A stretch of 64,000 bases of DNA from Candidatus Kaiserbacteria bacterium (GTDB taxonomy: Bacteria > Patescibacteriota > Minisyncoccia > Phycocordibacterales > Phycocordibacteraceae). The DNA lies in NCBI GenBank assembly GCA_016182485.1, contig JACPGH010000007.1, forward strand, positions 27,656 through 91,655, written 5' to 3'. A model generated the notes under the pieces. That model saw only the letters and a program-made list of their open reading frames with translations. It was not told where the DNA came from and made no database searches. The translations under genes and the position numbers were made by a program. This document shows positions 6,829-41,571 of the stretch, in pieces; positions within the stretch are counted from its first letter, which is position 1, and every line of letters begins with the position of its first letter.

Positions 6829-7311
6829 TTAGTGCCTTTTCCAGACGTATTTCTCGCCTTTGCGCAAAGCGTCGGCCATGACTATTTCATCATAGATACC
6901 GTCGAGCAGGTCGTATTCCTTCGACTCCTCCACGTCCACCCAAGCGTATTTGTCATTCTCTGCTTCCTCTAGCTTTACCTCCCCGCCCGCATGATCTGCG
7001 AGGCATGATATCACGATTGAGGCGGCGGCGCCGTCATGTTCGGTTGCGAGCGAGGTAACGTACCGGACGTTCTCAATCGCAAGGCCGACTTCTTCCAGGA
7101 TTTCCCGCGCGAGCGCCTTCTCGAGCACGTTATACCAATAATGCTCGGTATCCTTCGGATATCCGGTAAAGTCTGACGGTTCGAGATGCCCTCCCGGCAC
7201 CGTCCACTTGCCCGGGAATCTTTTCTTCGTGGCCGGACGGCGCGTTATCAAATATTTGCCGTCTTTCTGGATGATCGCGGTAATAACCACTTCAAACCGC
7301 GTGTAAGCCAT
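6829..7311 (-). CDS. NUDIX hydrolase
   Basis: Nudix box GKWTVPGGHLEPSDF...REILEEVG. Confidence 0.75.
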   Translation of the reverse strand: MAYTRFEVVITAIIQKDGKYLITRRPATKKRFPGKWTVPGGHLEPSDFTGYPKDTEHYWYNVLEKALAREILEEVGLAIENVRYVTSLATEHDGAAASIVISCLADHAGGEVKLEEAENDKYAWVDVEESKEYDLLDGIYDEIVMADALRKGEKYVWKRH

Positions 7312-11793: not shown

Positions 11794-11796
11794 CAA

Positions 11797-11890
11797 ATTT
11801 TCAATGCTCAATTTCGCAATTTTTAATCAATTTTCAAACATTGATACATTGGGCATTATTTGAAAATTGGAAATTGTAAATTGAAAATTA
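11797..11890. repeat. AT-rich imperfect-palindrome element, family 1 (arms caattttcaa / ttgaaaattg around a loop acattgatacattgg)
   Basis: The same arm/loop layout recurs in every spacer from 11797 to 18339. Confidence 0.75.
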
Positions 11891-11902
11891 TGTTAGACTA
11901 AA

Positions 11903-12889
11903 ATGATGGATTTCCTCGCTATCGGCGACACGACCGTAGACGAATTTATCCGGCTCAAAGAAGCGAAGATCTCTTGCGACGAGAACAGGGATCATTGCAC
12001 TATTACGTTCCCGTGGGGCGAGAAAATTCCCTACGAGTCTTCGGTGCTCCTCCCCGCCGTCGGCAATGCGGCGAATGCGGCCGTAGCGGCGGCGCGCCTC
12101 GGACTCTCTGCGGGCCTCGTGAGCAATGTAGGTAATGACCGTTTCGGCGAAGAGACGCTCGCGGTTTTCCAGCGGGAAGGCGTCGATGTCTCCCATACGC
12201 GCGTCAACGACGGCATCCCTACGAATCACCACTACGTCCTATATTACGATTCCGAGCGGACCATCCTTATCCGGCACGAGGCGTATCCGTACGCTCTGCC
12301 GGAGAATATGACCGCCCCGAAATGGATATACCTCTCCTCGCTCGGCGAAGGCGCGCATGCCTTCCATGACGAACTCGCTGCGTGGCTCGCGGACCACCCG
12401 GAAACCAAGCTCGCTTTCCAGCCGGGCACGTTCCAGATACAGATTGGGCGGGAACGATTGAGAAATTTATATGCGCAAGCGGCAGTCTTCGCGAGTAACA
12501 AGCAGGAGGCGGAAAACATCCTCGGGGTTGGGGACACCGACGTCAGGAGTCTCCTTGAGCAAATGCGGGCGCTGGGGCCGAAAATTGTTCTTATCACAAA
12601 TGGCGTCGCCGGCGCCTACGGCTTCGATGGCGAGAAAATGCTCAAAGTCCCGATGTACCCGGACCCCAAGCCGCCTTATGAGCGCACCGGCGCCGGCGAC
12701 GCCGCCACCGCAACCTTCGTAGCCGCGCTCGCGCTCGGCAAACCTCTGGAAGAAGCGCTTCGCTGGGGACCGATCAACTCGATGTCGGTCGTCCAATTCC
12801 TCGGCGCGCAAGAAGGCCTGCTCTCTCGCGACGCGCTCGAGAAACTGCTCGCCGACGCGCCCGAATCGTACGCAGTAACCACGCTCTAA
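11903..12889 (+). CDS. PfkB-family carbohydrate kinase (ribokinase-like)
   Basis: N-terminal GG motif region and C-terminal TGAGDA anion-hole motif. Confidence 0.75.
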   Translation: MMDFLAIGDTTVDEFIRLKEAKISCDENRDHCTITFPWGEKIPYESSVLLPAVGNAANAAVAAARLGLSAGLVSNVGNDRFGEETLAVFQREGVDVSHTRVNDGIPTNHHYVLYYDSERTILIRHEAYPYALPENMTAPKWIYLSSLGEGAHAFHDELAAWLADHPETKLAFQPGTFQIQIGRERLRNLYAQAAVFASNKQEAENILGVGDTDVRSLLEQMRALGPKIVLITNGVAGAYGFDGEKMLKVPMYPDPKPPYERTGAGDAATATFVAALALGKPLEEALRWGPINSMSVVQFLGAQEGLLSRDALEKLLADAPESYAVTTL

Positions 12890-12892
12890 TTT

Positions 12893-13010
12893 TCAATTAC
12901 CAATTTTCAATTTACATTGAATTTTCAAAGCTTCAATTTTCAAACATTAATACATTGGAAATTGGAACATTATTTGAAAATTGTAAATTGCAAAATTGAA
13001 AATTATTTGG
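12893..13010. repeat. Family-1 AT-rich palindromic element (loop caaacattaatacattgg)
   Basis: Arms caattttcaa ... ttgaaaattg. Inverse orientation of the copy at 16709-16802. Confidence 0.75.
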
Positions 13011-13151
13011 GCTGTTCGAGCCCGTACATCACCCGATTCCCGAAGGTTTCCGCGAGCGTAACATCTGTCGCCACGCGCACGATGAGCAGGGCCGCGCCGC
13101 CGCCAATGATCGTAATGAGCAATGCTCCGATATAAGAATTCACGCAGGCCC

Positions 13152-14165
13152 TCATGCTGCCAATACTATATCGCGTACGAGCGCTTTTGCCGCCTCGATA
13201 ATGTGGGTAACATCAAGCCCGTAGCGCGCCAACAGTTCCTGGGGCGTACCCGATTGGCCGAATTGATCTTGTATCCCGAGCCGTTTGATGGACACGACGT
13301 GTCCATCAGACAAGAATTCCGCGACGGCGCTCCCGAAGCCTCCGGCCGTTTGGTGTTCTTCTAGAGTAAGTACGCGGCCCGCGCTTTCCGCCGCTTCGAG
13401 TATCGCCCCGGTATCGAGGGGCTTCACGGTCGGCACATGGAGTACGACCGAATCGATTCCCTGTTCTTCGAGAGCGCGCGCGGCTTCGAGCGCGGCGTAG
13501 CTCAAGGAACCGGTCGAGAATATGGCGATTTCTGGTTTCTGGTTTCTGGTTTCTGGTTCCCAGAGTATAAGCGCCTTCCCGATCTCAAATGGCGTTTCGC
13601 GAGTGGTGAACACCGGAGTCGCCGCGCGTCCGAAACGTAAATATACAGGCTCTCCCAGGGCAGCCGCCGCAATGACTGCCTTGCGCGCCTCCTCGGCGTC
13701 CGCCGGAGCGATGACCGTCATCCCCGGCAGCATCCGCATCATGCCTATGTCCTCGAGCATCTGGTGCGTGGCGCCGTCGGCGCCGACCGATACGCCCGCA
13801 TGCATCCCGCACACGATGACCGGCATATTGTTGAGAGCAATCGTGGTGCGTATCTGCTCATAATTGCGCCCGGGATTAAACGCGGCATAGCTTGCGATGA
13901 AAGGAATTTTTCCCGCCGCCGCCATGCCCGCCGCCACAGTGGCCATATTCTGTTCCGCGACGCCCATCTCGATGAACCGGTCCGGGAAGGCTTTTTGAAA
14001 TTGTTCGGCGCGGGTGGATTCGGCCAAATCGGCGCAAAGCACTACGACGCGCGCATCCTTTTCTCCCGCCTCCACGCTTCCCGTTCCGAACCCGTCGCGC
14101 GTCGGCGCCGTCTCGATATCGTTCGAAAAAATTTTCTGCGAAAGCTTTGCGGAAAGATCCAACAT
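13152..14165 (-). CDS. Transketolase, C-terminal section (split transketolase subunit B)
   Basis: Pyrimidine-binding and C-terminal domains. Carries an in-frame (tggtttc)x3 microsatellite at 13533-13556. Confidence 0.85.
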   Translation of the reverse strand: MLDLSAKLSQKIFSNDIETAPTRDGFGTGSVEAGEKDARVVVLCADLAESTRAEQFQKAFPDRFIEMGVAEQNMATVAAGMAAAGKIPFIASYAAFNPGRNYEQIRTTIALNNMPVIVCGMHAGVSVGADGATHQMLEDIGMMRMLPGMTVIAPADAEEARKAVIAAAALGEPVYLRFGRAATPVFTTRETPFEIGKALILWEPETRNQKPEIAIFSTGSLSYAALEAARALEEQGIDSVVLHVPTVKPLDTGAILEAAESAGRVLTLEEHQTAGGFGSAVAEFLSDGHVVSIKRLGIQDQFGQSGTPQELLARYGLDVTHIIEAAKALVRDIVLAA

Positions 14166-14294
14166 AATTTTCGATTTACAATTTACAATTTACAAATAAG
14201 GACCAATTTCCAATTTTCAAACAAAGATTCCCGTTTGAGCATTGCACATTGAAAATTTCATTGGAAATTGCAAAATTGAAAATTGAAAATTCTT
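14166..14294. repeat. Family-1 AT-rich palindromic element
   Basis: Arms caatttacaattt... / ...ttgcaaaattgaaaattgaaaatt. Confidence 0.75.
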
Positions 14295-15209
14295 TCATGT
14301 TCTCTGTATTTGAGCTAAGAACCGCTCCCCTTCCTCCGCCGAAGGCGGCTTCCCATGCCACCTATAATCCCCTTCGATTTCCGGCACGCCCTTGCCGGCG
14401 GTCGTATGCGCGATGATTAGCGTCGGAGCGTCCGATACTGCCTTCGCTTCTTCAACCGCCCCGACAAATGCGTCCAAATCGTGCCCATCCACTTCGAGCA
14501 CGCGCCAGTTAAACGCGCGGTACTTCTCGGCGAGCGGTTCGAGCGGCATGACCTCCTCGGTATTGCCGTCGATTTGAATGTTGTTGCGATCCATGATCGC
14601 CGTGAGCCCGGCGAGACGGTGCTTCCCCGCGAACATGGCCGCCTCCCAAGTATTCCCCTCGTCCTGCTCGCCGTCGCTCATCACGCAGTAAATTCTAGGC
14701 GCTAGGCTATAGGCGCTAGGCTCTAGCTCTGATCCGTTTTTAAAATTGGAAATTGAAAATTGTCCGCCGGAGGCGGATCCGCCTTTGGCGGAAAAATTTT
14801 TAAGAGCCCACGCCATTCCCGCCGCCTGCGAGAGGCCCTCGCCAAGAGGCCCTGAGGTGGTTTCGAGACCTGTCAGCCGCGTTCTCTCGGGATGCCCTTG
14901 GAGCCGCGAGCCGAATTTCCGCAATGTGAGACATTCTTCGACCGGGAAATAGCCGGCATGAGCCAGAGTCGCGTACAAGACTGGGCAGATATGCCCGTTG
15001 CTGAGTACGAGCCTATCTCGTTCTTCCCAATCCGGCCGCGCAGGGTCGTGTTTCAAGATATGAAAATAAAAGGCGGCGAAGATGTCCGCCATGTCGAGCG
15101 GCCCCGCCGTGTGGCCGCTGCCCGCGGCGACAAGCATCCGGATCACAGTCTCGCGAATGGCCCGAGCCTTTCCCTCAAGCAGCCGAATCTCCTCATCAGT
15201 CAAAGCCAT
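14295..15209 (-). CDS. Transketolase, N-terminal section (TPP-binding subunit A); contains an in-frame ~25-aa repeat-derived insert
   Basis: GHxxxxxD and GDGE TPP motifs. An insertion (…KNFSAKGGSASGGQFSISNFKNGSELEPSAYSLAP…) is encoded by 14695-14775. Confidence 0.85.
   Translation of the reverse strand: MALTDEEIRLLEGKARAIRETVIRMLVAAGSGHTAGPLDMADIFAAFYFHILKHDPARPDWEERDRLVLSNGHICPVLYATLAHAGYFPVEECLTLRKFGSRLQGHPERTRLTGLETTSGPLGEGLSQAAGMAWALKNFSAKGGSASGGQFSISNFKNGSELEPSAYSLAPRIYCVMSDGEQDEGNTWEAAMFAGKHRLAGLTAIMDRNNIQIDGNTEEVMPLEPLAEKYRAFNWRVLEVDGHDLDAFVGAVEEAKAVSDAPTLIIAHTTAGKGVPEIEGDYRWHGKPPSAEEGERFLAQIQRT
14695..14775. repeat. Composite in-frame insertion inside the transketolase gene: ctaggcg/ctaggct tandem repeat plus a family-1 AT-rich motif (aaaattggaaattgaaaattg)
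   Basis: Direct sequence identity to the intergenic family-1 arms. Reading frame preserved. Confidence 0.7.
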
Positions 15210-15235
15210 GCTCTAAGTATACAGCATGAAACTAC

Positions 15236-15365
15236 CCTAATTTTTCAATTTACAATTTCCAATTTTCAAATAATTACCAATCTCCAATTTTCAAACAAAA
15301 TCCTTGTTTGGACATTGAATCATTGAAAATTGATTGAAAATTGCAAAACTAAACATTGAAAATTC
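15236..15365. repeat. Family-1 AT-rich palindromic element
   Basis: caatttacaatttccaattttcaa ... cattgaaaattgattgaaaattg. Confidence 0.75.
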
Positions 15366-16112
15366 TTAAACCCCGTAGGGATATTGGGCGATATACAACG
15401 CCTCGAACTCGGCGATGGCCTTTGCCGGATCTGCGGCTCGCAATATGCTCGAACCGACCACGAGATTCGAGACTCCGGCGGCAATAAGCCGCTTGGCATT
15501 ATGCAGGGAAACGCCGCCGTCAACCTGGATCGGGAGCCGCGGATATTTCTCGCGCAGGACGCGGATTTTCTCGAATACGCGCTCGTCGAAGGGCTGTCCT
15601 TGGCGGCCGATCCGCGCGATACCCATGCACTGCACGTACTGAACACAGCGGATACAGGGCTTGTCCTTCGTAGCTTCAGCGAAGAAGGGCTCGATGAGCG
15701 CAAGACTGCTCGCGAGATTAATTGCGAGACCGATCGAGAAGCCGCCGGCCTCTCCGAACCGTTCGGAGAGCGAGCCGAGAAGGCGCGGCAGGTCTATGGG
15801 GCTCTCGGCATGTATCGTGAGGCGGCTGGCGCCGAGAGCGAGCCATGCCGCCGCAGCCGCCTCCGCATCGATACACATGATATCGACTTCATACTCGACC
15901 GCGCCGAGCCGCGGCAACATGCCTTCCCAATTTTCAATTTCCAATTTCCAATTTTCAATGCTATACGGCCAGGAGGCAGGCGAGGCGAACTGCCCGTCTA
16001 CGACGTCGATCTGGATACGGTCAATCGAGGGAAGACTCGTGAGGAGTGCGAGTTTTTCTGCCAGCTCTTTTTTGGATGCGGGCAAAACGGCTGGAACGAC
16101 AAATGACATAGC
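15366..16112 (-). CDS. rpe: Ribulose-phosphate 3-epimerase
   Basis: IDVVDGQF…, HxMV-equivalent region, C-terminal VDGG(V)…GSSIL. Start set at MSFVVPAV; the upstream ORF extension only reads through the AT-rich element. Contains an in-frame repeat insert at 15927-15960 (IENWKLEIENW). Confidence 0.8.
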   Translation of the reverse strand, partial: AMSFVVPAVLPASKKELAEKLALLTSLPSIDRIQIDVVDGQFASPASWPYSIENWKLEIENWEGMLPRLGAVEYEVDIMCIDAEAAAAAWLALGASRLTIHAESPIDLPRLLGSLSERFGEAGGFSIGLAINLASSLALIEPFFAEATKDKPCIRCVQYVQCMGIARIGRQGQPFDERVFEKIRVLREKYPRLPIQVDGGVSLHNAKRLIAAGVSNLVVGSSILRAADPAKAIAEFEALYIAQYPYGV

Positions 16113-16216
16113 AAGAAAATTTTCAATTTTCAATTTTGCAATTTTCAAACGTTTGAAAATTAATACATTGAAAATTATTTGTAAATTGAAAATTGTAAAT
16201 TGTAAATTTGGTCATT
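16113..16216. repeat. Family-1 AT-rich palindromic element
   Basis: ttttcaattttcaattttgcaattttcaaacg ... ttgtaaattgaaaattgtaaattg. Confidence 0.75.
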
Positions 16217-16708
16217 CTAGAATTTCGCCAGCCTTCGCGCGTGGCGCGGCGAATCAGAGAACGGCGTGTTCAGGAAAATGCGGACCGCTTCGTCGGCTTC
16301 GCTCCCCGAAACGAACCGGGCGCCGATGCAGAGCACGTTCGCGTTATTGTGCCGGCGCGGGAGGCGCACGGCGTCATACCCGTCCTCCGAGCGGCCGCCT
16401 TCGATGTCGAGCGCTTCGGTCACCCGCATGGGGCCGTAGAAGACCGCGGCGCGGACGCCGGGCACTCGATTGGCGCACATCGCTTCGCCCTGCCCGCTGC
16501 CCCCGAGCGCGATGCCGCGCGCTTCGGGCTCGGCCGCCACGCGGCGGGCGAGCGCCCCGACGACGTCCGGATAATCGTCATCCGGCGCGAGCGAGTACGC
16601 GCCCAGGTCTTCGGCCTCGTGTCCGAGCGCCCGCACGTGCTCGAGGAGCGCGTTCTTCAGGTCAAACCCGGCGTGGTCAGAAGCAAAATAAATTTTCATA
16701 ATTTTCAA
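16217..16708 (-). CDS. rpiB: Ribose-5-phosphate isomerase B (RpiB/LacAB family)
   Basis: MKIYFASDHAGF… and the catalytic Cys region (GSGQGEAMCANR). Confidence 0.85.
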   Translation of the reverse strand: MKIMKIYFASDHAGFDLKNALLEHVRALGHEAEDLGAYSLAPDDDYPDVVGALARRVAAEPEARGIALGGSGQGEAMCANRVPGVRAAVFYGPMRVTEALDIEGGRSEDGYDAVRLPRRHNNANVLCIGARFVSGSEADEAVRIFLNTPFSDSPRHARRLAKF

Positions 16709-16802
16709 TTTTGCAATTTACAATTTTCAAATTATGTCCCAATTTCCAATGTATTAATGTTTGAAAATTTATTGTAAATTGCAAATTGATAATTGAGAAT
16801 TG
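16709..16802. repeat. Family-1 AT-rich palindromic element, inverse orientation
   Basis: Loop ccaatgtattaatgtttg is the reverse complement of the loop in the 12893-13010 copy. Confidence 0.75.
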
Positions 16803-17852
16803 TCACTTGGCCGTGCCGGCCGCTAGGACGTGCCGGACAAGTGACTCCGTATACCCCATCTCGTTGTCGTACCAAGCGAGCACCTTGACGAGATTGCCGT
16901 CCACGACCCGGGTCATGCCGAGGTCAGCGATCGAGGCGCACGGCTCTCCCACGATATCGCTTGAAACCAGCTCCTCATCGGTGGTCATGAAGAGGCCCTC
17001 CCAACGCGAGTCAGCCGCCGCCTTCCGCAAAATGTCATTGACTTCCTCGGCGGATGTCGGCCGCTTCGAAACGAAGGTGATATCCGCGATAGAGCCGGCT
17101 GCCACCGGCACGCGCAGGCTTATCCCGTCGAATTTCCCGGCGAGCGACGGGTACGCCTGCGTCACGGCGACGGCCGCGCCGGTCGAAGTCGGCACGATAT
17201 TAAGCGCGGCCGCCCTCCCTTCCTTCTTGTCTTTTCGCGAAGGCCCGTCGACGATAGACTGACTCGCTGTGTAAGCATGCGCCGTCGAGAGTATCGCCTT
17301 TTCGATACCAAGCGCCTCGTCGAGTATCGCTATGACCGGACTCGCGGCATTCGTCGTGCACGACGCATTCGAACTTATCTGACATGTCGAGAGCTTCTCC
17401 TCATTCACCCCCATCAGCACCGTGGCTCCTAGCGACTGGCTGCTAGTGGCTAGTGGTTGGTTTTTGACCGGTGCAGTGATGACAACACGCTTCGCTCCGG
17501 CCGCGAGATGCGCGCTCGCCTTCTCATAATCGGTGAACAATCCCGTAGACTCGACCGCTACATCGATACCGAGCTCCCCCCAAGGCAAATTCGCCGGCTC
17601 CTTTTCCGAGAAGAACTTCACTTCCTTCCCGTCAATCAGCAAAGCTGATTGCCCCGAGCTTGTCGAGGGGCTGATCCCGACCGAAAATGGCGCGCGCCCA
17701 TATACGGTGTCGTACTTCAATAAATAGGTTAGGTTTTCAAGCGAGCCGAGATCATTCACGGCGACCACTTCGATTCCGCGGCCCTGACTTCTCCTCGCAA
17801 ACGCGCGCCCTATTCGTCCGAATCCGTTAATGGCGACTCTAATGGGTTTCAT
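16803..17852 (-). CDS. gap: Glyceraldehyde-3-phosphate dehydrogenase (type I)
   Basis: NGFGRIGR Rossmann motif and catalytic SCTTN. Start set at MKPIRVAING; the upstream ORF extension is read-through of the repeat. In-frame repeat-derived inserts at ~17423-17460 and ~17640-17680. Confidence 0.85.
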   Translation of the reverse strand: MKPIRVAINGFGRIGRAFARRSQGRGIEVVAVNDLGSLENLTYLLKYDTVYGRAPFSVGISPSTSSGQSALLIDGKEVKFFSEKEPANLPWGELGIDVAVESTGLFTDYEKASAHLAAGAKRVVITAPVKNQPLATSSQSLGATVLMGVNEEKLSTCQISSNASCTTNAASPVIAILDEALGIEKAILSTAHAYTASQSIVDGPSRKDKKEGRAAALNIVPTSTGAAVAVTQAYPSLAGKFDGISLRVPVAAGSIADITFVSKRPTSAEEVNDILRKAAADSRWEGLFMTTDEELVSSDIVGEPCASIADLGMTRVVDGNLVKVLAWYDNEMGYTESLVRHVLAAGTAK

Positions 17853-17933
17853 GATGATAGTGTAGCATGGCCAAAAATGAGAATTTTCAATTTTGCAATT
17901 TTCAATTTTCAATAAATTTTCAAGGCTCAATTT
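17853..17933. repeat. Family-1 element, left-arm type (caattttcaa repeats), abutting the 3' end of the 4HB gene
   Basis: gagaattttcaattttgcaattttcaattttcaataaattttcaaggctcaattttcaaac. Confidence 0.7.
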
Positions 17934-18293
17934 TCAAACGGATCGCGCCGAGGCAGCAATTTTTTGGAAAATTAATGTTAATTCTTGGCTCTCTTTCTGT
18001 AATCTCCCTAAAGCATCGTCTTCTATCGTCCCACAGGACACCAGCATCCTAAGCCAGTGCTTCGTTTCTTGTATCTCTTTTTTGCATATGTAAATCTTGT
18101 TGACGAAATCTCTTTTTGAGCTGGCGCCGTTCGCTTCCATATAATTGGCTCCTACGCTCGTACCAGAGCGTAAAAGTTGGTTAACAATTGGATCTGTTAT
18201 ATGACTACGATGGATTTTCTTACAAAGCGATATAATTTCTTCACCAAACCGAGCCGTTCTTTCTTCTAGATCGTATTTCTTCGTTTGATCCAT
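17934..18293 (-). CDS. Four-helix-bundle protein (PF05635/TIGR02436, '23S rRNA intervening-sequence protein' family)
   Basis: 119 aa. Motifs LRSGTSVGANYMEA and RDFVNKIYICKKEIQETKHWL match the 4HB family. Sits exactly between a left arm and a right arm of a family-1 element. Confidence 0.75.
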   Translation of the reverse strand: MDQTKKYDLEERTARFGEEIISLCKKIHRSHITDPIVNQLLRSGTSVGANYMEANGASSKRDFVNKIYICKKEIQETKHWLRMLVSCGTIEDDALGRLQKESQELTLIFQKIAASARSV

Positions 18294-18339
18294 TGAAAAT
18301 TGGTCCTTATTTGAAAATTGGAAATTGTAAATTGAAAAA
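18294..18339. repeat. Family-1 element, right-arm type (ttgaaaattg repeats), upstream of the 4HB gene
   Basis: ccattgaaaattggtccttatttgaaaattggaaattgtaaattgaaaaatt. Confidence 0.7.
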
Positions 18340-21300
18340 TTATTGTGGCGTTGTCGAAGTTTCGGTAGCCGCGGAGAGGGGCTCGATTACTGTCACTAGC
18401 CTCGAAACCGAACCCGTGTTCCCCGCCGCGTCCGTCGCGCTGTAGGTGAGCGTGTATGAGCCGGCTGTTGCGGTATCTGCGGAACCCGAGGTCGCGATTT
18501 TTGCCGTTAGGTCTCCGTCCGTTTCATCTGTAGCGGTCGCCCCCGGGTCTGTGAAGGTCTGACCTTCACTGATCTGCATCGCCGCCTCTCCGTTCAAGGT
18601 CACGATCGGAGGTTGAGAGTCTGAATCCGGACTTATGACTTCCGACTCTGGAGTAGCGCTCGACTCTTGACTCGTGACTTGTGACTCTTGACTTGTTGTA
18701 CCGGCTACTACGCTCCCGTTGCCTACGATCACCGACCGCGTCGCCATGATGCTCCCATTCGGCCCGAGTACGCGATAGGTGATTATGTAGGTCGTCTCGC
18801 TTGAGGTATCAATAGTCCCCGGGCCGACTTCCGACTCCACGCCGTTGATATAAGTCGTTACGGGCGCACCCCCTGCATCGATTCCCGGATCAACGAAGTT
18901 CCCCCCGACCTCGATCAGATAAGGATTATCCCCGAGCACCGTAATCCATTGGGTGCTCGTGTTTGAATTGGAAATTGAAAATTGAGAATTGGAAATTTGT
19001 GACTCTGGCGTGCTTGTCGCCATCTGCCCTTCCGTCTGGATCAAGAAGTAATCGAAGGAGGTGTCTCCCGCCTGCGGGCTCTCGAGCACGAGGCGGAAGG
19101 AGCCGTCCTTCTTCTCCGCGATATACCAGGAGCCGGTCGTCGAGGCGGTGAAGGTGACGAATATCTTGGTCGAGGGCTTCACGTAGGCGTTCTGCACCTC
19201 CGCGACCGTGTTGCCGGCGATTATTTTCACCGTCCCGGCCGAGCTCGTACCGGCGGAATTCGTCGCCGCGACGAACTGGTCGGCCACGAGCGTGCCGAAC
19301 TGCGCGATGCCCTTCGCGATATAGGCGCCAAAGGCGTTAAAGGCGCTCGCGAGCGAGGTCGTCGAGAAGGAGACCGGCGAGCCGGAGGCAGAGGAGACCG
19401 CGCCGCTCTCGAGCGCCGCGAGGCGCGCCTCGAGCGAGGTGAGCCGCACCTCGGCGCGATCGACCTTCTCGGCGAGCGTCTGCACGCCCGCGAGGGTCAG
19501 GGTCGCGAGCTTGTAGAGATCCACGCCGTTGCCGTCTATCGAGAGGATCTCGGGCGCCGTCTCCCGCGCATCCTCGGCAATGAGGCCGAGCCGGAGCGGG
19601 TTGCTCCCGGCCTCTGCCGCGTAGCGATACGTCGCGACCTTGAGCCCGCGAACCTTGCCCAGCACGGCCTCGGTCGAGCTCGCGCTCATATAATTGATGT
19701 CGGTCTTGAGCGCGCGCGTCGAAGTGTTCACGAAGCTCGTCGCGCTCACTTCCTGCGCCGTGAGGCGATTGATGTAGCCCTCGTTCGTCACCGCGAGATT
19801 CGATGTCCACACGGAGGTCGAGGCGACAAAAGAATCCGCCGCTACGTTGCCATATACTGTGAACAAGCCGGCAGCTTGGTGCGGAAACGATCCTGTCACT
19901 TCGATTTCTGAGGGTTCGATTCCCTCTGCCGGCTTTTGCAGGTTTTCCACAATGCTTGCCGGGGTGCTTGACGCGTAAACCCAGTTTGCTATAATAGGTG
20001 CGGTGACAGGCTCGTTTCTCGCAGAAATCGAACCCTCGTAAGAGAACCCGAAGTAGCCGCCCGTAAGGGCGGTTATTTCGTTTTCCAGCGTCCCTACCCT
20101 CCCCGCGAGCCGCGTCGAAGTGGTGCTCAGCTCCTGTATCGCCAGTATCATCGGCGCGGCGAGGCCGTCGTAATTGATGGAGAGCGTGCCGTCGGGCGTG
20201 AGCGAGGTGGGGGCGGAAGTCTGTACGAGATCCGGGAACACCTCTCGCACCTGCTGGGCGATGAGGCCGAATTGCTTCTGGCTCGAGCGCTCCGCCGCCG
20301 GATCCCAGTAGAAAGAAACGGGCCGGAGCGCGTCGATCGCAGACAGCCCGCTCGCTGTCGCGAGCGGGCTTATATCCTGCTTCAGCCGCTCGTCAGACGC
20401 GGAGCAGGCGAGGAGGCCGTTGCCGTTAGACGTGAAGCCGGTGCAGTTCTTGTAGCCGTCGAAGGTGACGTTCGCCGTCTCCCCGCCGACTTCAAGCAGG
20501 GTCGCGGGCGTCGTAGTCCCGAGGCCTATCGCGCTCGCGCTCATGTAGATCGGCTGGACGCCGCTCCCCACGAGGCGCGAGGTGATGATGAGATTGCCGG
20601 TTGAGGCGTCGATGCCGAATTCGCCGATGTAGTTGGGGTCGGAGCCGTTGTAGATGGTCATGGCGGAAGCGCTCCCCGCGGTCGTCACGATCGAGAAGCG
20701 CTCGCTTTGTCCGCCGGGGCTTGCCGTCCCAATCCCGACATCACCGGAGTCGTCGATCACGAACGGCGTCGGGTCGCCTGCCTGGTCGTTCACGGCGAAG
20801 GAGAGCGCGGCGCTCGTATTCTCGACCGCGAACTTCGCGAACGGCGTGCTCGAGGCGATGCCGACCCGCTCGTTCGTGGCGACATAGAGCGAGGAAGTGG
20901 CGGTGAGGGTCGTACCGGTCCCCGCATAGTATGGGAACTGCCCGGCCGTGCCGGAACCGACCGTCCCTGTCCCGCTCCCGCCTCCCACGCAGACTCCGTT
21001 AATCGCAAAACATCCTGTTCGTATATCAATGCCGGAGCCGAACGTGGACGTGGCGGTCGCCGAAATGTTAATCGTATTGGCTCCCGTATCTCCAAGCGAG
21101 AGCAGCGTCCCCGGACTCGTCGTCCCGATGCCGACGTTGCCTTCTATTATCATCCCGTTAGTGGGAGCCGCCGCACCGTAATTTGTTCCCACGGAAACCC
21201 CTCCAGCAATACTCAATTTACTTCCCGGAGTAGTGGTGCCAATACCAACCCTCTGGTTGTACCCTCCAGAGACACCGCCAATAAAGAACGGCGTGTAGCT

Positions 21301-24300
21301 CGTGGAGAAATCTCTGACAGCAGCCGTGTTTTGCTCAATAGAAAAGAAATCAGTCGTATTTCCTACATGGAGCCGCCAGATACCTTCAGAAGTTGCATAA
21401 TTCTTGTTGTCCATTACGAAGTAATTGTCTCCGCCGGTTGTGGTTTGAAGAATGCTTAATGGCGTTGTCGTCCCTATGCCGACGTTGCCAGTGCTGTTTA
21501 TCACCATTTGTGTAGCATTGCCGCCTGTTCGGAAAGACATGCCTCTCGATAGCCCGTTGGGACTGTAGAAAACCCCCCCATCAGCTACGTTATTCGGGCT
21601 TCCAAACAACAAAGCTTGCTCATTAGCATTTGGAGCAAGAAGAGATAGGTAATTTGAGCCACTGTTTTCAACCGTCAGGACTGTCCCCGCAAGAGGGGTA
21701 ATCCCCGAAAATCCTCCTGTTACATGCAATTTACTCTGCGGACTCGTCGTCCCGATCCCGACGTTGCCATTCTTTATAATAGTCATGTAGTTCGAGATGG
21801 TAGAACCATCCCAGACGCCAAAGTCGAGTGCCATATTGCTGCCGCCGGGCGCCCGAGTTTGGATACGAGCGAAGTCATACCCTCCGGTGGCCGTATCGCT
21901 AAAGAGGAGCCCGATAGCATCACCGGTTTGTCCTCCAAAACCGCTCGTACCAATTTTGGCTACGCTTGTCAGGCTTCCTGCGACTCGTGTACCGGAAACA
22001 GTTAATGTATTTGTAGGCGTCGTCGTCCCGATGCCGACATTTCCGGTGCTTGCTTGAACGGTTAACTTAGGATTGCCACTGATAGACAATTGCACATCTC
22101 TGTTTGAACTTAACATCGCATATGTAGAATTGTCCGTGGAGAGATAATGGCTTTCATCACCAAAGAAAATATTCCCGGCTACTGAAAGTTTTCCTCCAGG
22201 TGCCGCCGCCCCAATCCCCACATTCCCATTCGCCAGCACGGTCATGAGGGTGGAAGTCGACGTGCCAGCAGTCGTAGAGGCGATAGTGAACAGCGGCGTG
22301 TTTACAGCGGTTCCCGCAGCGTTCGAAATCGAGAGGATTGAATACGGCGAGGTCGTCCCGATGCCCACGTTGCCGCCGCTTGTGATGCGCATTTTTTCAG
22401 AGGCATTGGTAGTAAACCCAAGATAGCTACTTCCAAAAATGCCGTAGCCAGTGAGGTTTGAAATATTTACGGCTGGAGTCTCTGCGGTACTTTGAGCTTG
22501 TTCATCAAACGAAGCCCGGCCGAAGGCGTCAATCTTAAACCATTCCTGGGCAGTCGTCAGGTCGGTACCATTTATCAAAACCGCGCCATTACCGGTAGTG
22601 CCGCGTAAAATTAGGCGAGTGTTGTTGGTCGTGGTGTTCGCTATTTCCAAATGACCGACCGGACTCGTCGTCCCGATGCCGACGTTGCCGGCAGTCGTGA
22701 TTGTTAATTTTGCGCCATCAGAAGGAACGGCGTTATTTGTCGTTATGTAGAATTTATTTTCAGAATCATCCCCGAGTCCCATTGCCCAATTCGTCGTTCC
22801 ATTTGTCTGGAATTCTAGCTCATTGTTATTGGTTACAGCTCCACGATTCAATCTCAAATAATTGTGGCTGCCGGAATCAAACCTTGAAACAAGATTCGAG
22901 CTTTTATAGACATCCAATAATACACCCGGCGTCGTTGTCCCAATCCCGACGTTGCCAGTCTGCACTATCAAAGCTGCGTGACTTGCATCAGCCATGTTTA
23001 TGTGAAGACCTCGCTGTATGCCTGCGTTTGATTGCGACCCTCCGGTTATTCTTAGACCGGTATTTATTCCGTTTGTCCCTGAGCCTGTCGTAGCGCCGGT
23101 CGTAATATCTATGCCGTAAGATTCCTGCGCATTGCCGCCGCTGTGATCTTTTCTCATGGTTGGGGTGGTAATTTGTACGCCCCTCCATGTAAAGCCGCCC
23201 GTATTCCCTAACCAATTCCCGGAGGTAATCTCGATTCCCCGAACTGTCGCGACATCGCCGCCTTGATCAAATTGGCCGGGGCTGCCTGTCTCGATCCTAG
23301 CTCCCGTGAGGGTAGCTGGCGCATTATTCATGGTGAAGGTTGGCATCTTGAGAACCAACCCTCTCTGCGTAACTCCCGAGGCATTGGTTACATTGGTATT
23401 CGCATCGAGAGTCGCAAGGTCAAAAGTAGAGCTTATAGCCGAAGGCTGTGCAACCGCCAATCTGCTTTCGGGACTCGTCGTCCCAATCCCAACATTCCCA
23501 TTCCCGTCGATCACGAAGCGGTCGTCGGTGCCTAAGGCGGATGACGACGCGATTTTGAATTTGCCTCCGTCGGAGTAATCCATGCCCATTGTCCACTTGT
23601 ACGTCGGCCCCGCGAGCGCTGATAATTCGATTGCGACGTCGTTCGCCGGCTGATAAAGAGTCAGGACTTGATTAGCGCTCGTCGTCGCAATGCTCAATTT
23701 TCCGTCACCGCTGCCAGTACCCTGCGCGGTTATGAATGGAATCGTTGCACCCACATATAGTTTAAAAACATCATTCCCTCCGCTAAGAGCCGTGTTATCC
23801 CAATCGTCGGAATTGCCTAAGTAGACAACTCCGTTCCCTCCGGTGCTTTTTGAAGAGCCTACTATGGCAATCCCAGCTGCTGAAGAGCTGCCCCACGCCC
23901 TTTCGAACAGCGCATTAAGCCAGCTGTCTGGGGTATCGGTAATACCCGCGCTTTGGGCTGTGTCGCGGACATGCAAATCCGCCCAAGGACTCGTCGTCCC
24001 GATGCCGACGTTGCCGCCGTTTGGATTTATCAACGCGCTGCGGTTATTAGCGGAATGAGCTTGCAGAGTCAAATTCCCGGTAGAGGTGTTATACAATTCG
24101 AGGTATCCATAGATAGAAGTGTTATCAAGACCTGAGCGAATTTGCTGAGAGTACGGCTGGAATATATCTCCGGCTACATGCAAGGTTGCGAGAGGACTTA
24201 CTGTTCCAATCCCAACATTGGAAGTTGTTGCCGATACAGTAAGGACATTTGTGCCAACTTGTAATGTAGCTCCGGGATTGGTAGTCCCGATGCCGACGTT

Positions 24301-27300
24301 GCCGCCGTTTGTCTGAAGAGAGAGCGGGTAGTTGACCGACTGGTCTGTGCTGTCATGTACTTGAATCCATGCAGACCACGGAGAAGTATTCAACGCACCA
24401 AAATCCATCGCAATATTATCTGTGCCGCTGAAACGTACCCGTCCGGTAGCAGTCGTCCCCGAATTAGCCGGGACACCCGCGGCTCCATTCACCTGGAGCG
24501 AAAGGGCGGGATTTGAAACGCCAATACCAACGCTTCCCCCCGCATCTATGGTAAAGGGCGTGGCGTCCGGCGACTCTGTGTCCTCCACAACGAATGAGGG
24601 ACCACTCCCTGCATTCGTTACCGAAAGCACTCCCCACGGACTCGTCGTCCCGATGCCGACGTTGCCGGAAGTGTCTATCGTCAAAGATTCTACACCGTTG
24701 GAATAGAGCGAAAGTTTTTGAGCCTTGCCATTGACATCCCCCATCTGCAAAGTGCTGCCCGATTGTGAGGCAATAATTATATTGCCCGGAGCCACCGAGA
24801 GAACATAATTGGAGGTCGCGTAGAATCCAGGAGCCGTAAGGTATCCGTTATAATCCCATCTGGCTAATTCTGATTGTGCGCTATTTTCGATTCTTATGAT
24901 TGGTCGGTTTGCTGCGTCATCTATAGTTCTAAAAACCGCGACATAGTCATTTGGAGACGCGCTCGTCGAACCGGCCACGACCAATTTCGACGTTGGATTC
25001 GTTACACCAATCCCCACGTTCCCTCCGAGGAACACCGCCGCCGGGCCAGTCGATTTCTGCTCGATAGCGAGCGTCGGATACGCCGAGGTGCTTGAGGCAG
25101 AGAGCTGGCCCCAAGGGGTGGTGGAACCGATCCCGAATTTCCCATTCGAAAGGTCAAGGGTCATTCGGGTTGTGGGCGTAAAAGCAGAATTCATCGTTAA
25201 GCCCGTATCCCCCGTAAACAAAAGTTCTCCGTTTAGCTCTCGGAGCATAGAAGCCGCCGTTCCGCGGGCAACCATAGCGGCTGCGACCTCGTCTACGTCG
25301 AAACCTAGGAATACATTTCCAGAATTGACGACGGACATTGAAATAGACCCGGGACCTGCGGCATAACCAGAATTCACAATAAATTGCGAATTAAGCCCTT
25401 GGCCCCCTCCATAATTCTGGATATTTAACAAAGCATCTGGACTCGTCGTCCCGATCCCGACGTTGCCGCCTTCCTGAATGTACATCCGCGCAGACAATGT
25501 TGCTGCACTCCCAACCGCCCCGCTTGGCGCGGTGTAAAATCCAATATCTCCAGCTCTGTTGTTATCATTAATCCCGATTGCTGCGCCACCGGCGGCTTCT
25601 ATATATTTCCAACCACTCGAATAGTAAAGGTTGCCCGCTACATTGGCTCCGGCGTTCCCACCAAAGGTCATGTCATCCCCTGATGTGGCAATATGAAGAA
25701 GATTTAGCGGACTCGTCGTCCCGATGCCGACGTTGCCAGTGCTATCAGCAATGAACATTGAATCATCTGGAGCGTTGTAGCCGATCGAAAACTTCCTTCC
25801 ACTCGTTCCTGCATCTGTCCCAAGAATTATTCTTCCAGCGTTATTACCAAAGTAAACTATCTTACCAGCTGGAGAAGATGCTGAGTCATCCAAGCGTATA
25901 TATGGAGTCGAACCAACTGCATGAATAATCTGTACAGGATTGGCGACTCCTATACCGAGTTTCCCATTAGTCCCCCCTGCAGTTGATGCTCCGACGAAAA
26001 GATCGCCTCCAATAGAGGTGAGTGCAGCCGGACTCGTCGTCCCAATGCCGACGTTGCCTGAGCCGTTTGCGTAGAGGGTGCTGGCGATCGCGACTTGAGT
26101 AGCCGAAACACTAATGGCATTATCGAGACCTGCTGCAGCAAATGCCAGAAGAGTTTTATCGTCTTTACCATCACGTATGTAGAAATTGTTACTGGTCAAG
26201 CCTCCAATGAAGCCAACCTTCCACAAAGCAGCTCCGTTCGAGTCTAATGTAAGCCCTCCATCATGGCTATTATTTGGTCTATTAAAAAGAATAGAAGCAG
26301 GGCCACCGCTAATGGAGAGTAACGCTCCCGGACTCGTCGTCCCGATGCCGACGTTGCCGTTCGCTTGCAATGTCATCACTGTAACATCCCCTGTTTTATC
26401 AAAACTGCCGCTGCTTTTGAGATTAATATCGAGGCGTGAATACGGATTGGTATCACCCACTTGGTATCGTCCGAGCGCAAATTCCGCAATATTGGGATAT
26501 GAGACACCGTCATTTACACCTCTATAGAGCTGCAGGATTCCTGCTGCTCCCACTGAAGAAGGAGCAACAGAGCCCACCACCTCAAGAGGCACCGCTGGAT
26601 TTATCGTTGGAGTTCCGATACTCACTTCGGTACCGCTTATAATCATCGCATCCGAAAATACATTTGCCCCCGTTGTGGTCTGAAACACTAACAAGGAGCA
26701 ATCATTTCCATAACAGTTACCCCCGAAAGTACCTAAAATTCTTCCAACCGACGGTGTTGGAGTCACACCTCCCGTAGGCGCAAGAAACCTGATACCCGCA
26801 CCCGGCCCATAATTTGTACCCGGTAAATCGTTCACCACCGCTATCTCGGCGCTTATATTTCCACTCCGTGTAGAAGTAGTATCGGACCGAGAAAATTCCG
26901 CAAGAAAATTCGGTATAGCTTTCCCAATCCCCACATTCCCCGCGTTCGTAATAGTAAGCGCCGCGGGGGTTGATGTCCCATACGCATCCGTCGATGTCCC
27001 GACGTACAGGTTCCCGCCCATTGAGGAAAAGAGCCAGTGTTTCAAGTTGGCACCCGCCGAAGAATCAGAGAGCGCAAAAGATGGTCGAGTGCCCGCGGCT
27101 TGCAGGAGCCAGTTCGGCGTCGTAGTCCCGATGCCGACGTTGCCGGAGTCATTGACGACCATCAGGACATTATTCGTTGCGTCTCCATCTGTTTGATGAT
27201 GGCCGATGACGAAGGCCTGGCCAGTGTTGTCATTATCAGCGTCAAGGTTGACCCGGAAACTGCCTGTGCTTGAAATCATTCCCCAACCATCAGGTCCGGT

Positions 27301-40374: not shown

Positions 40375-40535
40375 AATCTCAAATCGCAAGATCCAAGATG
40401 AGTGCCCAAGAACCAACCTCTAAGAACCAAACAAAAACCAATGTCCAAAGGACCAATGTTTTATTTTTGAAGATTGGTGCTTGAAATTTGTTTGGTACTT
40501 GGGGTTTGGTGCTTGGAATTTAGTATTTTTGAGAG
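40375..40535. repeat. Family-2 AT-rich imperfect-palindrome element (arms caagaacca… / …ttggtgcttgg), complete copy between gatB and obg
   Basis: Left arm ccaagaaccaacctctaagaaccaaacaaaaaccaatg and right arm cattggtc…ttggtgcttgaaatttgtttggtacttggggtttggtgcttgg are roughly reverse-complementary. Confidence 0.7.
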
Positions 40536-41483: not shown

Positions 41484-41571
41484 TGCACCACGATACGCTA
41501 AAAAGAACCAAGAACCAAATCGCAAGAACCAAACAAACCACGCTAAAAAGAACCAAGGACCAAACAAACAC
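41484..41571. repeat. Family-2 element, left-arm type (aagaaccaa periodic repeats)
   Basis: aaaaagaaccaagaaccaaatcgcaagaaccaaacaaaccacgctaaaaagaaccaaggaccaaacaaaca. Confidence 0.65.

Follow-up and report, generated by a model that had tools for sequence, protein, structure and literature searches.

Few proteins of unknown function in CPR bacteria and cyanobacteria are as common as the four-helix bundle (4HB) proteins of the PF05635/TIGR02436 family. Since the ORFs of rRNA intervening sequences (IVSs) were described in 1993, no role that we know of has been proposed for these proteins outside the Avd of diversity-generating retroelements (DGRs). The rRNA IVSs of Leptospira, Coxiella burnetii, Brucella, and Xanthomonas carry a PF05635 (S23p) ORF within a long inverted-repeat stem. 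The ORF runs in the sense of the host transcript, with a poor or absent SD sequence. ORF-less IVSs also exist. IVSs are excised by RNase III, and the rRNA is not re-ligated afterwards. Coxiella has tandem GACAGAT heptamers in its 23S IVS; they stand directly upstream of the S23p ATG, within the stem that RNase III cleaves (PMC4990558). In Coxiella the protein itself is apparently not produced.

Heptamer repeats form a second body of observations. Their over-representation in bacterial genomes has been remarked repeatedly; in many bacteria no other long simple repeats are so over-represented, and slippage has been suggested to produce them (PMC4679880, PMC4692102). The arrays are tandem and intergenic, carry a degenerate position, and mostly number about four units. 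They often lie immediately upstream of start codons and sometimes form inverted pairs (PMC4692102, PMC4679880). Neither paper draws a connection between the repeats and 4HB genes. The annotated start of one 4HB gene, Xanthomonas XCC0516 (PDB 2GSC), adjoins a four-unit GGGAATC array (supplement of PMC4692102). In open-access text, we found no paper linking 4HB or S23p proteins to heptamer repeats, STRR, or mobile elements, and none on four-helix bundles in CPR bacteria that makes the link to heptamers.

We analyzed a window of 64,000 nt from a contig of Candidatus Kaiserbacteria, a CPR bacterium. It contains a 119-aa 4HB ORF enclosed by inverted heptamer arrays:

17881–17939, minus strand: 3' arm of the 4HB element, an inverted heptamer array reading TGA-AAATTGAGCCTTGAAAATTTATTGAAAATTGAAAATTGCAAAATTGAAAATTC in gene sense
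17934–18293, minus strand: 4HB ORF, PF05635/TIGR02436 ("23S rRNA intervening sequence protein", S23p, Avd-like)
18291–18345, minus strand: 5' arm of the 4HB element, CAATTTN heptamers in tandem reading CAATAATTTTTCAATTTACAATTTCCAATTTTCAAATAAGGACCAATTTTCA-ATG in gene sense

The initial annotation, made from the letters alone, placed a PF05635-like ORF in the loop of a palindromic element, and both parts of this claim hold. The ORF matches PF05635 (E 2.8e-18; 66.5 bits, curated cut-off 33.8) and TIGR02436, "four helix bundle protein" (E 5.2e-24; 84.6 bits, cut-off 24). It is flanked by an inverted repeat (I1; 17882–17931 and 18292–18341) with arms of 50 nt each, 72% complementary and 360 nt apart. 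The left arm had been drawn from 17853. It actually begins at about 17881, after the GAPDH start codon (17853–17855) and a spacer (17856–17880). Because the gene is on the minus strand, this left arm is the 3' arm of the gene.

The ORF and the arms are joined closely. The 4HB start codon (18291–18293) is the CAT of CATTGAAAATTG, fused to the inner end of the 5' arm. The stop codon (17934–17936) lies inside CAATTTTCAAAC, the first unit of the 3' arm in gene sense. Both codons are thus within the innermost heptamer units, and the ORF therefore fills the loop exactly. At its outer end, the 5' arm holds the TAA stop (18340–18342) of the upstream gene, a giant 6352-aa surface-protein ORF. The element is located between this ORF and GAPDH, and all three genes are on the minus strand, hence co-directional. 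With the ORF deleted and the arms joined, the composite folds at −40.1 kcal/mol. Allowing at most one mismatch, the window has 73 occurrences of CAATTTTCAA, where 4.6 would be expected; almost all of them fall within 11.8–19.0 kb. An Rfam scan of the window returned one tRNA only, and the element is not in rRNA.

The IVS-like layout, an ORF enclosed by inverted heptamer arms outside rRNA, is therefore confirmed as real. The proposal of an IVS-like organization in intergenic DNA is supported by the enclosing stem, the co-sense ORF, and the absence of rRNA, and the Coxiella heptamers strengthen the analogy. The element resembles the rRNA IVSs in its enclosed ORF, the sense of that ORF, its poor or absent SD sequence, and the existence of ORF-less forms. 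It differs in lying between protein-coding genes; none of 80 related loci is in rRNA, and no rRNA motif was found beside the 4HB gene in any of them. It also differs in having arrays of four to seven heptamers on both sides, and dispersed ORF-less copies in nearby intergenic gaps and inside ORFs. For this element, excision by RNase III is inferred only.

The 4HB protein is basic (pI 8.8). An AlphaFold (AF2) monomer model has a pLDDT of 92, with helices at residues 9–26, 33–55, 60–86, and 93–118. The top structural matches in Foldseek were 2RLD (E 3e-6, TM 0.78–0.85), 2GSC (TM 0.80–0.85), and Avd (4DWL, 8UB7). Homopentamers are known for 2GSC and Avd, and by analogy the 4HB protein is probably an Avd-like pentamer too. 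The conserved motif of the family is GxxRxxxSxxxNxxE (PMC3936711), present here as R42, S46, N50, and E53 in LLRSGTSVGANYMEAN. Across 24 aligned 4HB sequences, R42, N50, and E53 never vary, and S46 hardly does. Comparison with six relatives gave a pN of 0.14–0.26 and a saturated pS of 0.84–0.98, rates by which purifying selection is seen to act on the protein. Pfam and NCBIfam returned 4HB families only; neither they nor the Foldseek matches indicate a transposase domain or a nuclease or recombinase fold. One search returned more than 5,000 relatives, and no contig record encoding the exact protein was found.

The arms accompany the gene in its relatives. At least three heptamer units stand on both sides of the ORF in 63 of 77 close 4HB relatives, compared with 4 of 697 control ORFs. 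In the other 14, one arm is missing or the arms have diverged. These relatives span CPR phyla; their hosts are 29–61% GC and the arms about 22% GC. Of 78 loci, 68 have arms that can be aligned with each other over 25 nt or more at no less than 70% identity (median 42 nt at 82%). The arms are conserved although synonymous sites are saturated. Judged by these counts and alignments, arms and 4HB ORF are conserved as one module across CPR phyla. Of 76 loci, 70 have an upstream neighbor in the same orientation, more than the baseline of 78% predicts (p = 0.0013), and the median gap is 48 nt. Every syntenic relative seen (the window and four others, L001 and L005 among them; 42–61% GC) has the element at the same site after the giant ORF. 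The 4HB element is therefore old here, possibly domesticated, and not recently mobile.

Shorter palindromes with the same arms lie on the far side of GAPDH. Six ORF-less copies (E1–E6) of 86–120 nt occur at 11.8–16.8 kb, and three further blocks resemble single arms. Identities below are to the ORF-deleted composite, and ranks place this genome's own arms among 79 candidate arm pairs:

11795–11890, minus strand: E1, between RecG and a PfkB-family kinase gene; 93/106 identical, rank 1
12887–13005, minus strand: E2, between two convergent genes; 104/120 identical, rank 1; site empty in L005 and L001
14179–14292, plus strand: E3, between the genes for the N- and C-terminal transketolase subunits; 99/110 identical, rank 1
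15246–15365, plus strand: E4, between the Rpe and transketolase-N genes; 102/113 identical, rank 1; site empty in L005
16117–16202, orientation unresolved: E5, between RpiB and Rpe; 87/96 identical, rank 7
16699–16802, plus strand: E6, exactly between the GAPDH stop and RpiB start codons; 92/108 identical, rank 1
14739–14762, no strand assigned: single-arm block within the transketolase-N ORF, part of a ~34-aa insert absent from orthologues
15928–15958, no strand assigned: single-arm block within the Rpe ORF (IENWKLEIENWEG), at a variable loop
18968–18991, no strand assigned: single-arm block within the giant 6352-aa ORF (ISNSQFSISNS)

All other copies had been described as sharing the arms around a loop of about 15–30 nt. 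This is true of the arms of the six full copies but not of the three single-arm copies inside ORFs, and the loops measure about 4–28 nt. The short elements had also been read as ORF-less derivatives of a 4HB-carrying parent, a reading that would have been refuted by arms that could not be aligned to them. They can be aligned, at 87–104 identical of 96–120 positions (85–91%), and for five of the six no candidate pair matches better than the arms around the 4HB ORF of their own genome. From these alignments we conclude that the short palindromes are ORF-deleted derivatives, or homogenized copies, of the 4HB element in their own genome.

Comparison with syntenic relatives identifies the short palindromes as insertions. 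L005 keeps the 4HB element and has no short element in the same operon, four of the short-element junctions being empty; L001 has one short element, at the E5 site that is empty in L005, and several empty junctions. In L001 the E3 site is empty and the junction reads TAGtATG. The E6 site is empty in both L005 (TAGcATG) and L001, and a third relative (L002) has a complete 4HB element at the same junction. In the window, the terminal TAA/TTA of E2 provide the stop codons of both convergent neighbors. The search for empty sites and target-site duplications proposed in the initial annotation found empty sites. No consistent duplication was found at five filled/empty junctions, where the TAA...TTA ends are inseparable from the inverted repeat itself. 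Insertion or absence at orthologous junctions supports mobility of the short elements, as far as sequence comparison goes, without showing how they move.

Two other identities for the palindromes were rejected. As intrinsic terminators, their stems are AU-rich, and a terminator scan gave 7 sites against 10.4 in shuffles. As an integron-like cassette array, the genes are housekeeping genes on both strands, syntenic with relatives without palindromes.

A second 4HB element in the window carries another heptamer family:

41503–41971, minus strand: second 4HB element, with inverted arms of CAAGAAC/CAAATCG heptamers
about 40380–40520, no strand assigned: short ORF-less palindrome of this second family, between GatB and the next gene

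Its ORF (41572–41931, 119 aa) is 33% identical to the first and scores 47.3 bits against the PF05635/TIGR02436 family profile. An unflanked 4HB gene elsewhere in the genome would have counted against the initial annotation. This one is flanked by inverted arms of 35 nt, 86% complementary, although their heptamers are of another family. The C-terminal tail of the upstream ORF is encoded partly within the 5' arm. The closest metagenomic relative of this gene (L093) has arms identical in type, and 52 metagenomic relatives carry CGAAATC, CTAAATC, CCAAATC, or CAAGAAC arms. In these 52, the 5' flank shares a median of 10.5 7-mers with the reverse complement of its own 3' flank, 2.0 with that of another locus, and 1.0 in direct orientation. 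Six related loci, L002 among them, have additional 4HB genes, each with its own heptamer. By these comparisons, the heptamer differs between 4HB clades, and its complement is always present on the other side of the gene.

Arm-to-arm specificity rests on this own- versus other-locus k-mer sharing, not on a covariation model. The duplex free energy of 5' and 3' flanks was uninformative, as spurious GC-rich control ORFs were equally low. Motif counts and k-mer sharing were used because duplex energy failed to separate the controls. RNAalifold on MAFFT arm alignments gave no consensus structure; the tandem repeats align with many gaps.

The pattern of inverted heptamers around a 4HB gene recurs on plasmids of Nostoc, Planktothrix, Gloeocapsa, Chlorohelix, and Treponema. 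In 50 kb of a Nostoc plasmid, the 4HB gene is the only one of 37 CDS with arrays of at least four units on both sides. Many Nostoc heptamer arrays do not adjoin any 4HB gene. Since most lie elsewhere, the relation, if real, would be that of a parent element to dispersed derivatives. The STRR-type heptanucleotide repeats of cyanobacteria, GGGAATC of Xanthomonas, and TAACTGA of Beggiatoaceae are, like the arms here, tandem heptamers with a degenerate position.

We take the element to be an IVS-type 4HB hairpin outside rRNA with MITE-like derivatives, at a probability of roughly 0.55. RNA processing, arm binding, and the mode of spread are inferred. The compact module comprises a tandem heptamer array, a PF05635 4HB ORF, and an inverted heptamer array. 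We infer that it has no promoter of its own and is transcribed through read-through from the upstream gene, in line with the co-oriented upstream neighbors and short gaps in related loci. The arms of the transcript may then pair, forming an imperfect AU-rich stem of about 45–50 bp that encloses the start and stop codons. RNase III could cleave this stem as in rRNA IVSs, freeing the 4HB message and uncoupling the flanking cistrons. The basic 4HB protein is proposed to bind heptamer hairpins, both that of its own element and those of the copies without an ORF. Such cognate binding would explain the joint change of protein clade and heptamer sequence. The elements may spread, or may once have spread, into intergenic and loop-coding sites via host or trans-acting enzymes. 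Points that weigh against this reading, besides the arm mismatches and short-element placements discussed below, are that neither a target-site duplication nor a mobility enzyme was found, that the 4HB element keeps one site in the syntenic relatives, that 14 of 77 relatives have a missing or diverged arm, and that Coxiella apparently makes no S23p protein.

Coincidence has almost nothing to recommend it. Slippage could give rise to AT-rich heptamer microsatellites in many gaps, and a small gene could by chance lie between two of them; heptamers are indeed over-represented in many bacteria, and many Nostoc arrays are away from 4HB genes. The counts in relatives and control ORFs contradict this, as do the specifically inverted orientation, the position of both the start and the stop codon within the innermost heptamer units, and a layout common to five phyla with unrelated heptamers. 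An account at the DNA level is harder to set aside, although we consider it unlikely. The element would be a MITE or foldback, its heptamer arrays serving as terminal inverted repeats or ssDNA hairpins for a transposase or recombinase encoded elsewhere, its 4HB gene a cargo of unrelated function, and its short copies ordinary non-autonomous derivatives. No transposase adjoins the elements in the annotated stretch, no consistent target-site duplication was seen, and the heptamer sequence follows the 4HB clade. Only 4HB ORFs are enclosed by arms in all cases examined (five phyla, many unrelated heptamers); random cargo would vary, which counts against a passenger gene. The arms are about 72–82% complementary, with mismatches mostly A/T at the degenerate seventh position and no excess of sense-strand G–U wobble (88 versus 105 of antisense type). 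The arms therefore give no specific support to pairing in RNA as opposed to complementarity in DNA or concerted copying. Short elements are found in either orientation, and also between convergent genes, so DNA-level insertion fits them better than a purely RNA-level role. Single arms in frame within ORFs, element ends of TAATTTTCAA...TTGAAAATTA, and junctions filled in some genomes and empty in others also suit a DNA-level element.

The 4HB protein could instead serve the host as a trans-acting RNA- or DNA-binding regulator, with palindromes as operator or processing sites ahead of the regulated genes, its own flanks providing autoregulation, and a regulon here of pentose-phosphate and glycolysis genes. 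The arms may even act as outward-facing promoters, since they contain outward-facing TTGAAA-N17/18-GAAAAT motifs (17 promoter-like sites versus 4.0 ± 2.0 expected). A regulon is difficult to reconcile with L005, where the 4HB element is kept without short elements in the operon, or with L001, which has only one; it also sits poorly with copies between convergent genes and within ORFs. The fixed position after the giant ORF at 42–61% GC and the strong purifying selection on protein and arms alike speak for a host function, and TAACTGA heptamers upstream of Beggiatoaceae start codons have been proposed as post-transcriptional signals (PMC4679880). Against this, a single genome can contain several families of heptamer, every one of them with a separate 4HB gene, and 4HB genes also occur within operons of unrelated kinds (cas, restriction-modification, RND efflux) as well as in rRNA. 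We regard host regulation as improbable.

The evidence unites the 4HB family and the unexplained heptamer repeats physically, in a module found in several phyla whose repeat sequence depends on the clade. It gives a testable hypothesis, that the 4HB protein binds its own heptamer hairpin and that the hairpins are processed or propagated, and cognate protein–repeat pairs would be predictable from sequence alone. It also bears on CPR annotation. Gene callers extend ORFs into the arms, producing N-termini such as "SNFQFTIFNQF", and repeat blocks occur within housekeeping genes. A wider conjecture, which we hold only tentatively and think rather doubtful, is not excluded by the evidence and has no binding data behind it. 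PF05635 4HB proteins may be sequence-specific binders of tandem heptamers and the coding core of widespread hairpin elements. The bacterial heptamer excess (CPR palindromes, STRR-type, GGGAATC, possibly TAACTGA) would then largely be their ORF-less progeny, each family tied to its own 4HB clade, and rRNA IVSs a special case that landed in rRNA.

Avd of the DGRs has the fold and superfamily of the window protein, at an identity of about 16%. Avd is pentameric and basic, and in the DGR complex it binds an RNA stem-loop adjoining its own gene (10.1101/2023.10.23.563531). In contrast to the window element, DGRs lack heptamer arrays. No reverse transcriptase was found near the 4HB gene among neighbors at 9.6–17.9 kb and three further ORFs.

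MITE-like palindromes of bacteria include the Correia elements of Neisseria, the Rickettsia palindromic elements, and cyanobacterial Nezha. The short copies share with them inverted arms, an intergenic place, co-transcription with neighbors, and presence or absence at orthologous sites. Correia elements carry promoter-like hexamers, as do the short copies, and Rickettsia palindromic elements lie in frame in ORFs, like some copies here. The short copies meet the MITE criteria of terminal inverted repeats, multiple dispersed copies, and derivation from a longer coding element. One criterion fails: the long element has no transposase gene, its sole ORF specifying a helical bundle of 119 aa. The arms also differ in being tandem heptamers rather than unique inverted repeats, with no TA or other target duplication seen at the five junctions.

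In REPIN–RAYT systems the protein is an HUH Y1 transposase-like RAYT, whereas Pfam and NCBIfam identify the window protein as 4HB only, and REPs are not tandem heptamers. The likeness is one of organization. In both, inverted copies of a repeat bracket one protein gene, the same repeat is also scattered as short hairpin doublets, and each repeat family is paired with its own protein clade.

The ORF at 17934..18293 (minus strand), from a Candidatus Kaiserbacteria lineage of the CPR/Patescibacteria, encodes a 119-aa product identical to NCBI's 'four helix bundle protein [Candidatus Kaiserbacteria bacterium]' on a 123-kb contig. A profile search matches it to PF05635 (E 2.8e-18) and TIGR02436 (E 5.2e-24). 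Its predicted fold is a four-helix bundle (4HB; pLDDT 92), with the S23-family structures 2RLD and 2GSC and the diversity-generating retroelement protein Avd as top structural matches. In gene sense, the start codon terminates ...GGACCAATTTTCA-ATG and the stop codon opens TGA-AAATTGAGCC.... Both codons are joined to arm ends, and the ORF therefore exactly fills the gap between inverted CAATTTN arrays. This bears out the initial annotation, which placed a 4HB gene in the loop of a palindromic element; gene and arms are observed as one physical unit. With the ORF deleted, the arms fold at -40.1 kcal/mol, stabler than each of six short palindromes in the window (E1-E6). An upstream ORF of 6352 aa ends within the 5' arm, its TAA stop codon being part of the arm's outer end.

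That giant ORF (18340-37398) is a single frame in which 'GNVGIGTTSP' modules recur many times, and it lies immediately upstream of the 4HB element. The same order is kept in four loci carrying close relatives (L001, L005, L026 and L039). Being common to these, the element at this site is old, and it may be domesticated. TCAAT is present on the same strand in both arms (5' arm, ...TTTTCAATCAATTT...; 3' arm, ...AAATTCAATGAAAATTG..., in the 3' arms of L001-L080, the loci of close relatives) and may serve as a site of recognition or cleavage. Some database gene calls begin within the 5' arm, as in the relatives P0025 and P0119. This yields spurious N-terminal stretches, SNFQFTIFNQF and IFNLQFPIFNQFS among them, which are translated heptamers.

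Conservation was observed across 80 genome loci from many CPR phyla (59-79% identity; locus GC 29-61%). Arms were scored as at least three heptamer units on both sides, no farther than 70 nt away, in the 77 loci with both flanks available. Such arms flank 63/77 close 4HB relatives vs 4/697 control ORFs; of these four, two are themselves additional 4HB genes, 117 and 123 aa long. Arm GC is ~22% irrespective of host GC, and arms remain recognisable despite saturation at the gene's synonymous sites (pS 0.84-0.98; pN 0.14-0.26). Protein and arms are therefore both under constraint. The neighbours comprise 152 proteins in 116 families, so the insertion contexts are many and different. An organisation like that of 23S rRNA intervening sequences (IVSs), but outside rRNA, had also been proposed; this interpretation stands, and the pattern extends far beyond a single locus.

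The heptamer motif occurs 73 times vs 4.6 expected, almost all within 11.8-19.0 kb. The genes there are RecG, a PfkB-family kinase, the transketolase C and N subunits, Rpe, RpiB and GAPDH. Matches sort into three groups: E1-E6, the split pair around the 4HB gene, and three single-arm blocks inside ORFs. E1-E6 are complete short palindromes, each occupying one intergenic gap, and both orientations are found. They were aligned end to end with an ORF-deleted composite (5' arm + ATG joined to GTT-TGA + 3' arm).

Identity of the short elements to the window's own composite
E1: 93/106 identical
E2: 104/120 identical
E3 (transketolase subunit junction): 99/110 identical
E4: 102/113 identical
E5 (RpiB/Rpe): 87/96 identical
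E6 (GAPDH/RpiB): 92/108 identical

The short elements still carry the ORF-bracketing CAATG and GTTTGA, and share idiosyncratic stretches with the composite (e.g., CAAATAAGGACCAATTT and the order of heptamer variants). Each was scored against 79 composites, the window's own and those of 78 other genomes. The best score is that of the own composite for five short elements; for E5, the own composite comes seventh. This supports the earlier proposal of ORF-less derivatives and establishes short-copy derivation: as judged from sequence, E1-E6 are related to the 4HB element, either as deletion derivatives of this genome's own copy or kept homogeneous with it.

Insertion polymorphism is seen directly in syntenic relatives. 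L005, a Paceibacterota MAG locus with proteins 70-78% identical to the window's, shares the window's gene order, down to the 4HB element that follows the giant ORF. It lacks any short element at junctions matching the window's filled ones.

Matching junctions in L005
GAPDH/RpiB: TAGcATG
RpiB/Rpe: 15-nt spacer
Rpe/TktN: 26-nt spacer
Convergent gene pair: 6 nt apart

L001 has its sole short element at RpiB>Rpe. In L002, a complete 4HB element occupies the exact site of E6 at GAPDH>RpiB. Thus one gene junction is empty, short-filled or 4HB-filled depending on the genome. Element ends (TAATTTTCAA...TTGAAAATTA) often supply the neighbour's stop codon, and no consistent target-site duplication was seen at the compared filled and empty junctions. 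The RpiB>Rpe junction holds E5 in the window, a CAATTTT-type element in L001, and in L002 (~6910-7030) a short palindrome of another family, with CTACGAA / CTACAAA units. At the site of E3, between both transketolase subunit genes, L005 has a prepilin-like ORF (9650-10080; FTLIELLVVIAIIGILSAV...). In L079 (5820-6460), a 4HB gene is flanked by two complete short palindromes and is not in the loop of one.

Other heptamer families have their own 4HB genes. A second window gene (41572-41931), 33% identical to the first, has 35-nt arms of a CAAGAAC/CAAATCG family that are 86% complementary, and a short palindrome of this family lies at ~40.4 kb. Profile searches of the loci found further 4HB genes, each with its own heptamer (GAATTTT, CTAATTA, CGAAAT, GTAAAAA, GATACT). 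Among 52 metagenomic relatives of the second gene, heptamers vary (CGAAATC, CTAAATC, CCAAATC, CAAGAAC, ACAAATA), and the downstream array always holds the matching complement; the arms are observed to be clade-specific. The median number of shared 7-mers is 10.5 between the two flanks of one locus in inverted orientation, 2.0 when one flank is taken from a different locus, and 1.0 when the orientation is direct. On these sequence comparisons, the arms covary at the level of the whole element.

The same inverted layout recurs beyond the CPR, in 4HB genes carried on plasmids. In two Bacteroidota examples and in Pseudanabaena the layout is unclear.

Arms of plasmid-borne 4HB genes
Nostoc: TTCAAAA/TTTTGAA, GTCGGAG/CTCCGAC, TAATTCG/CGAATTA
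Planktothrix: CGTAAAT/ATTTACG
Gloeocapsa: TTTTAGA/TCTAAAA
Candidatus Chlorohelix: GATGAAG/TTCATC
Treponema: CTCTCCG arrays

Across 37 CDS in 50 kb of a Nostoc plasmid, arrays of at least four units on both sides occur only at the 4HB gene, and 13 other heptamer arrays lie away from it. These plasmid genes sit within co-oriented operons (cas2/cas1, drmD/MmeI, hsdS/hsdR, RND adaptor/permease). Six (L082, L084, L086, L087, L088 and L091; cyanobacterial, Chloroflexota and Bacillota plasmids) lie between defence-operon genes. The defence contexts are cas2/cas1, upstream of cas1, DISARM drmD/MmeI, helicase/N6-methylase, DUF1156/Swt1-HEPN and hsdS/hsdR, the last a pseudogene.

How the element works is inferred. 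The upstream neighbour is co-oriented in 70/76 loci vs a 78% baseline (p = 0.0013), the upstream gap (median 48 nt) is occupied by the arm, and no SD or inward promoter is evident for the 4HB gene. From this it is inferred that the element is transcribed by read-through from the upstream gene. By analogy with rRNA IVSs, a long AU-rich stem would form in the transcript and be cleaved by RNase III. The protein, which is basic (pI about 9) and probably pentameric, may bind the heptamer hairpin. This inference rests on heptamer sequence and protein clade changing together, and on its homologue Avd, which binds an RNA stem-loop encoded beside its own gene (10.1101/2023.10.23.563531).

Three observations speak against a purely RNA-level reading of the arms and elements. 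Arm mismatches lack an excess of sense-strand wobble pairs (88 vs 105), short copies lie in either orientation and also between convergent genes, and in-frame single arms lie inside ORFs, in variable loops of Rpe, transketolase and GAPDH. Spread at the DNA level suits all three. The 4HB unit includes no transposase, recombinase or reverse transcriptase, and the chemistry of spread is not established. Outward-facing TTGAAA-N17/18-GAAAAT motifs also arise from the arms, giving 17 promoter-like sites vs 4.0 expected, so an effect on neighbouring gene expression is possible on sequence grounds. Three outward-read heptamers together make this motif, which explains nearly all 17 sites (11860-18340); each gene of the minus-strand operon would gain one upstream.

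In-frame heptamer or short-repeat blocks lie at variable loops of housekeeping genes (15928-15958, 14700-14800, 17436-17460) and resemble Rickettsia palindromic elements inside ORFs. The Rpe block is IENWKLEIENWEG in the window, four copies of a 10-aa repeat in L005 and nothing in L001. Transketolase-N has a ~34-aa insert in the window, a different one in L001 and none in L005; GAPDH has 6 extra residues in the window. A terminator scan found a GC-rich hairpin (13 pairs) then an A/T run at 14763-14792, in the transketolase-N insert, adjoining the heptamer block. Period-7 families unrelated to CAATTTT also lie inside ORFs (14700-14735, 17436-17460, 18655-18700).

Period-7 repeats inside ORFs
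CTAGGCG-type: transketolase-N ORF
CTAGTGG-type: GAPDH ORF
TGACTCT-type: giant ORF, encoding TSQESQVTSQESS

Heptamer repeats are described as over-represented and unexplained in papers on Xanthomonas GGGAATC (PMC4692102) and Beggiatoaceae TAACTGA (PMC4679880). Repeat 15 of the Xanthomonas supplement (four units) is at a distance of 6 nt from XCC0517, and it overlaps the start annotated for XCC0516. The latter gene codes for the 4HB protein whose structure is PDB 2GSC, and the authors enter it merely as 'conserved' (PMC4692102). Published accounts describe 4HB genes in cas loci and 4HB homology to Avd without mentioning flanking repeats, and a CPR rRNA insertion survey lists a few 23S_rRNA_IVP ORFs in rRNA. 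Within the open-access literature, we came across no account of a 4HB gene in a heptamer hairpin outside rRNA. The broader idea, of a single system made up of 4HB proteins and the heptamer repeats of bacteria, is plausible but depends on a few dozen non-CPR examples and on inferred binding. A known parallel is the Coxiella burnetii 23S IVS, where an S23p (4HB) ORF lies within a terminal stem of 28 bp that RNase III cuts, with 2-3 tandem GACAGAT heptamers and one degenerate copy directly before the ATG (PMC4990558). Ralph and McClelland suggested in 1993 that the IVS was a mobile element and that its ORF encoded a component needed for mobility (cited in PMC4990558). We class the element described here as a 4HB element of the IVS type that lies outside rRNA and has MITE-like derivatives.
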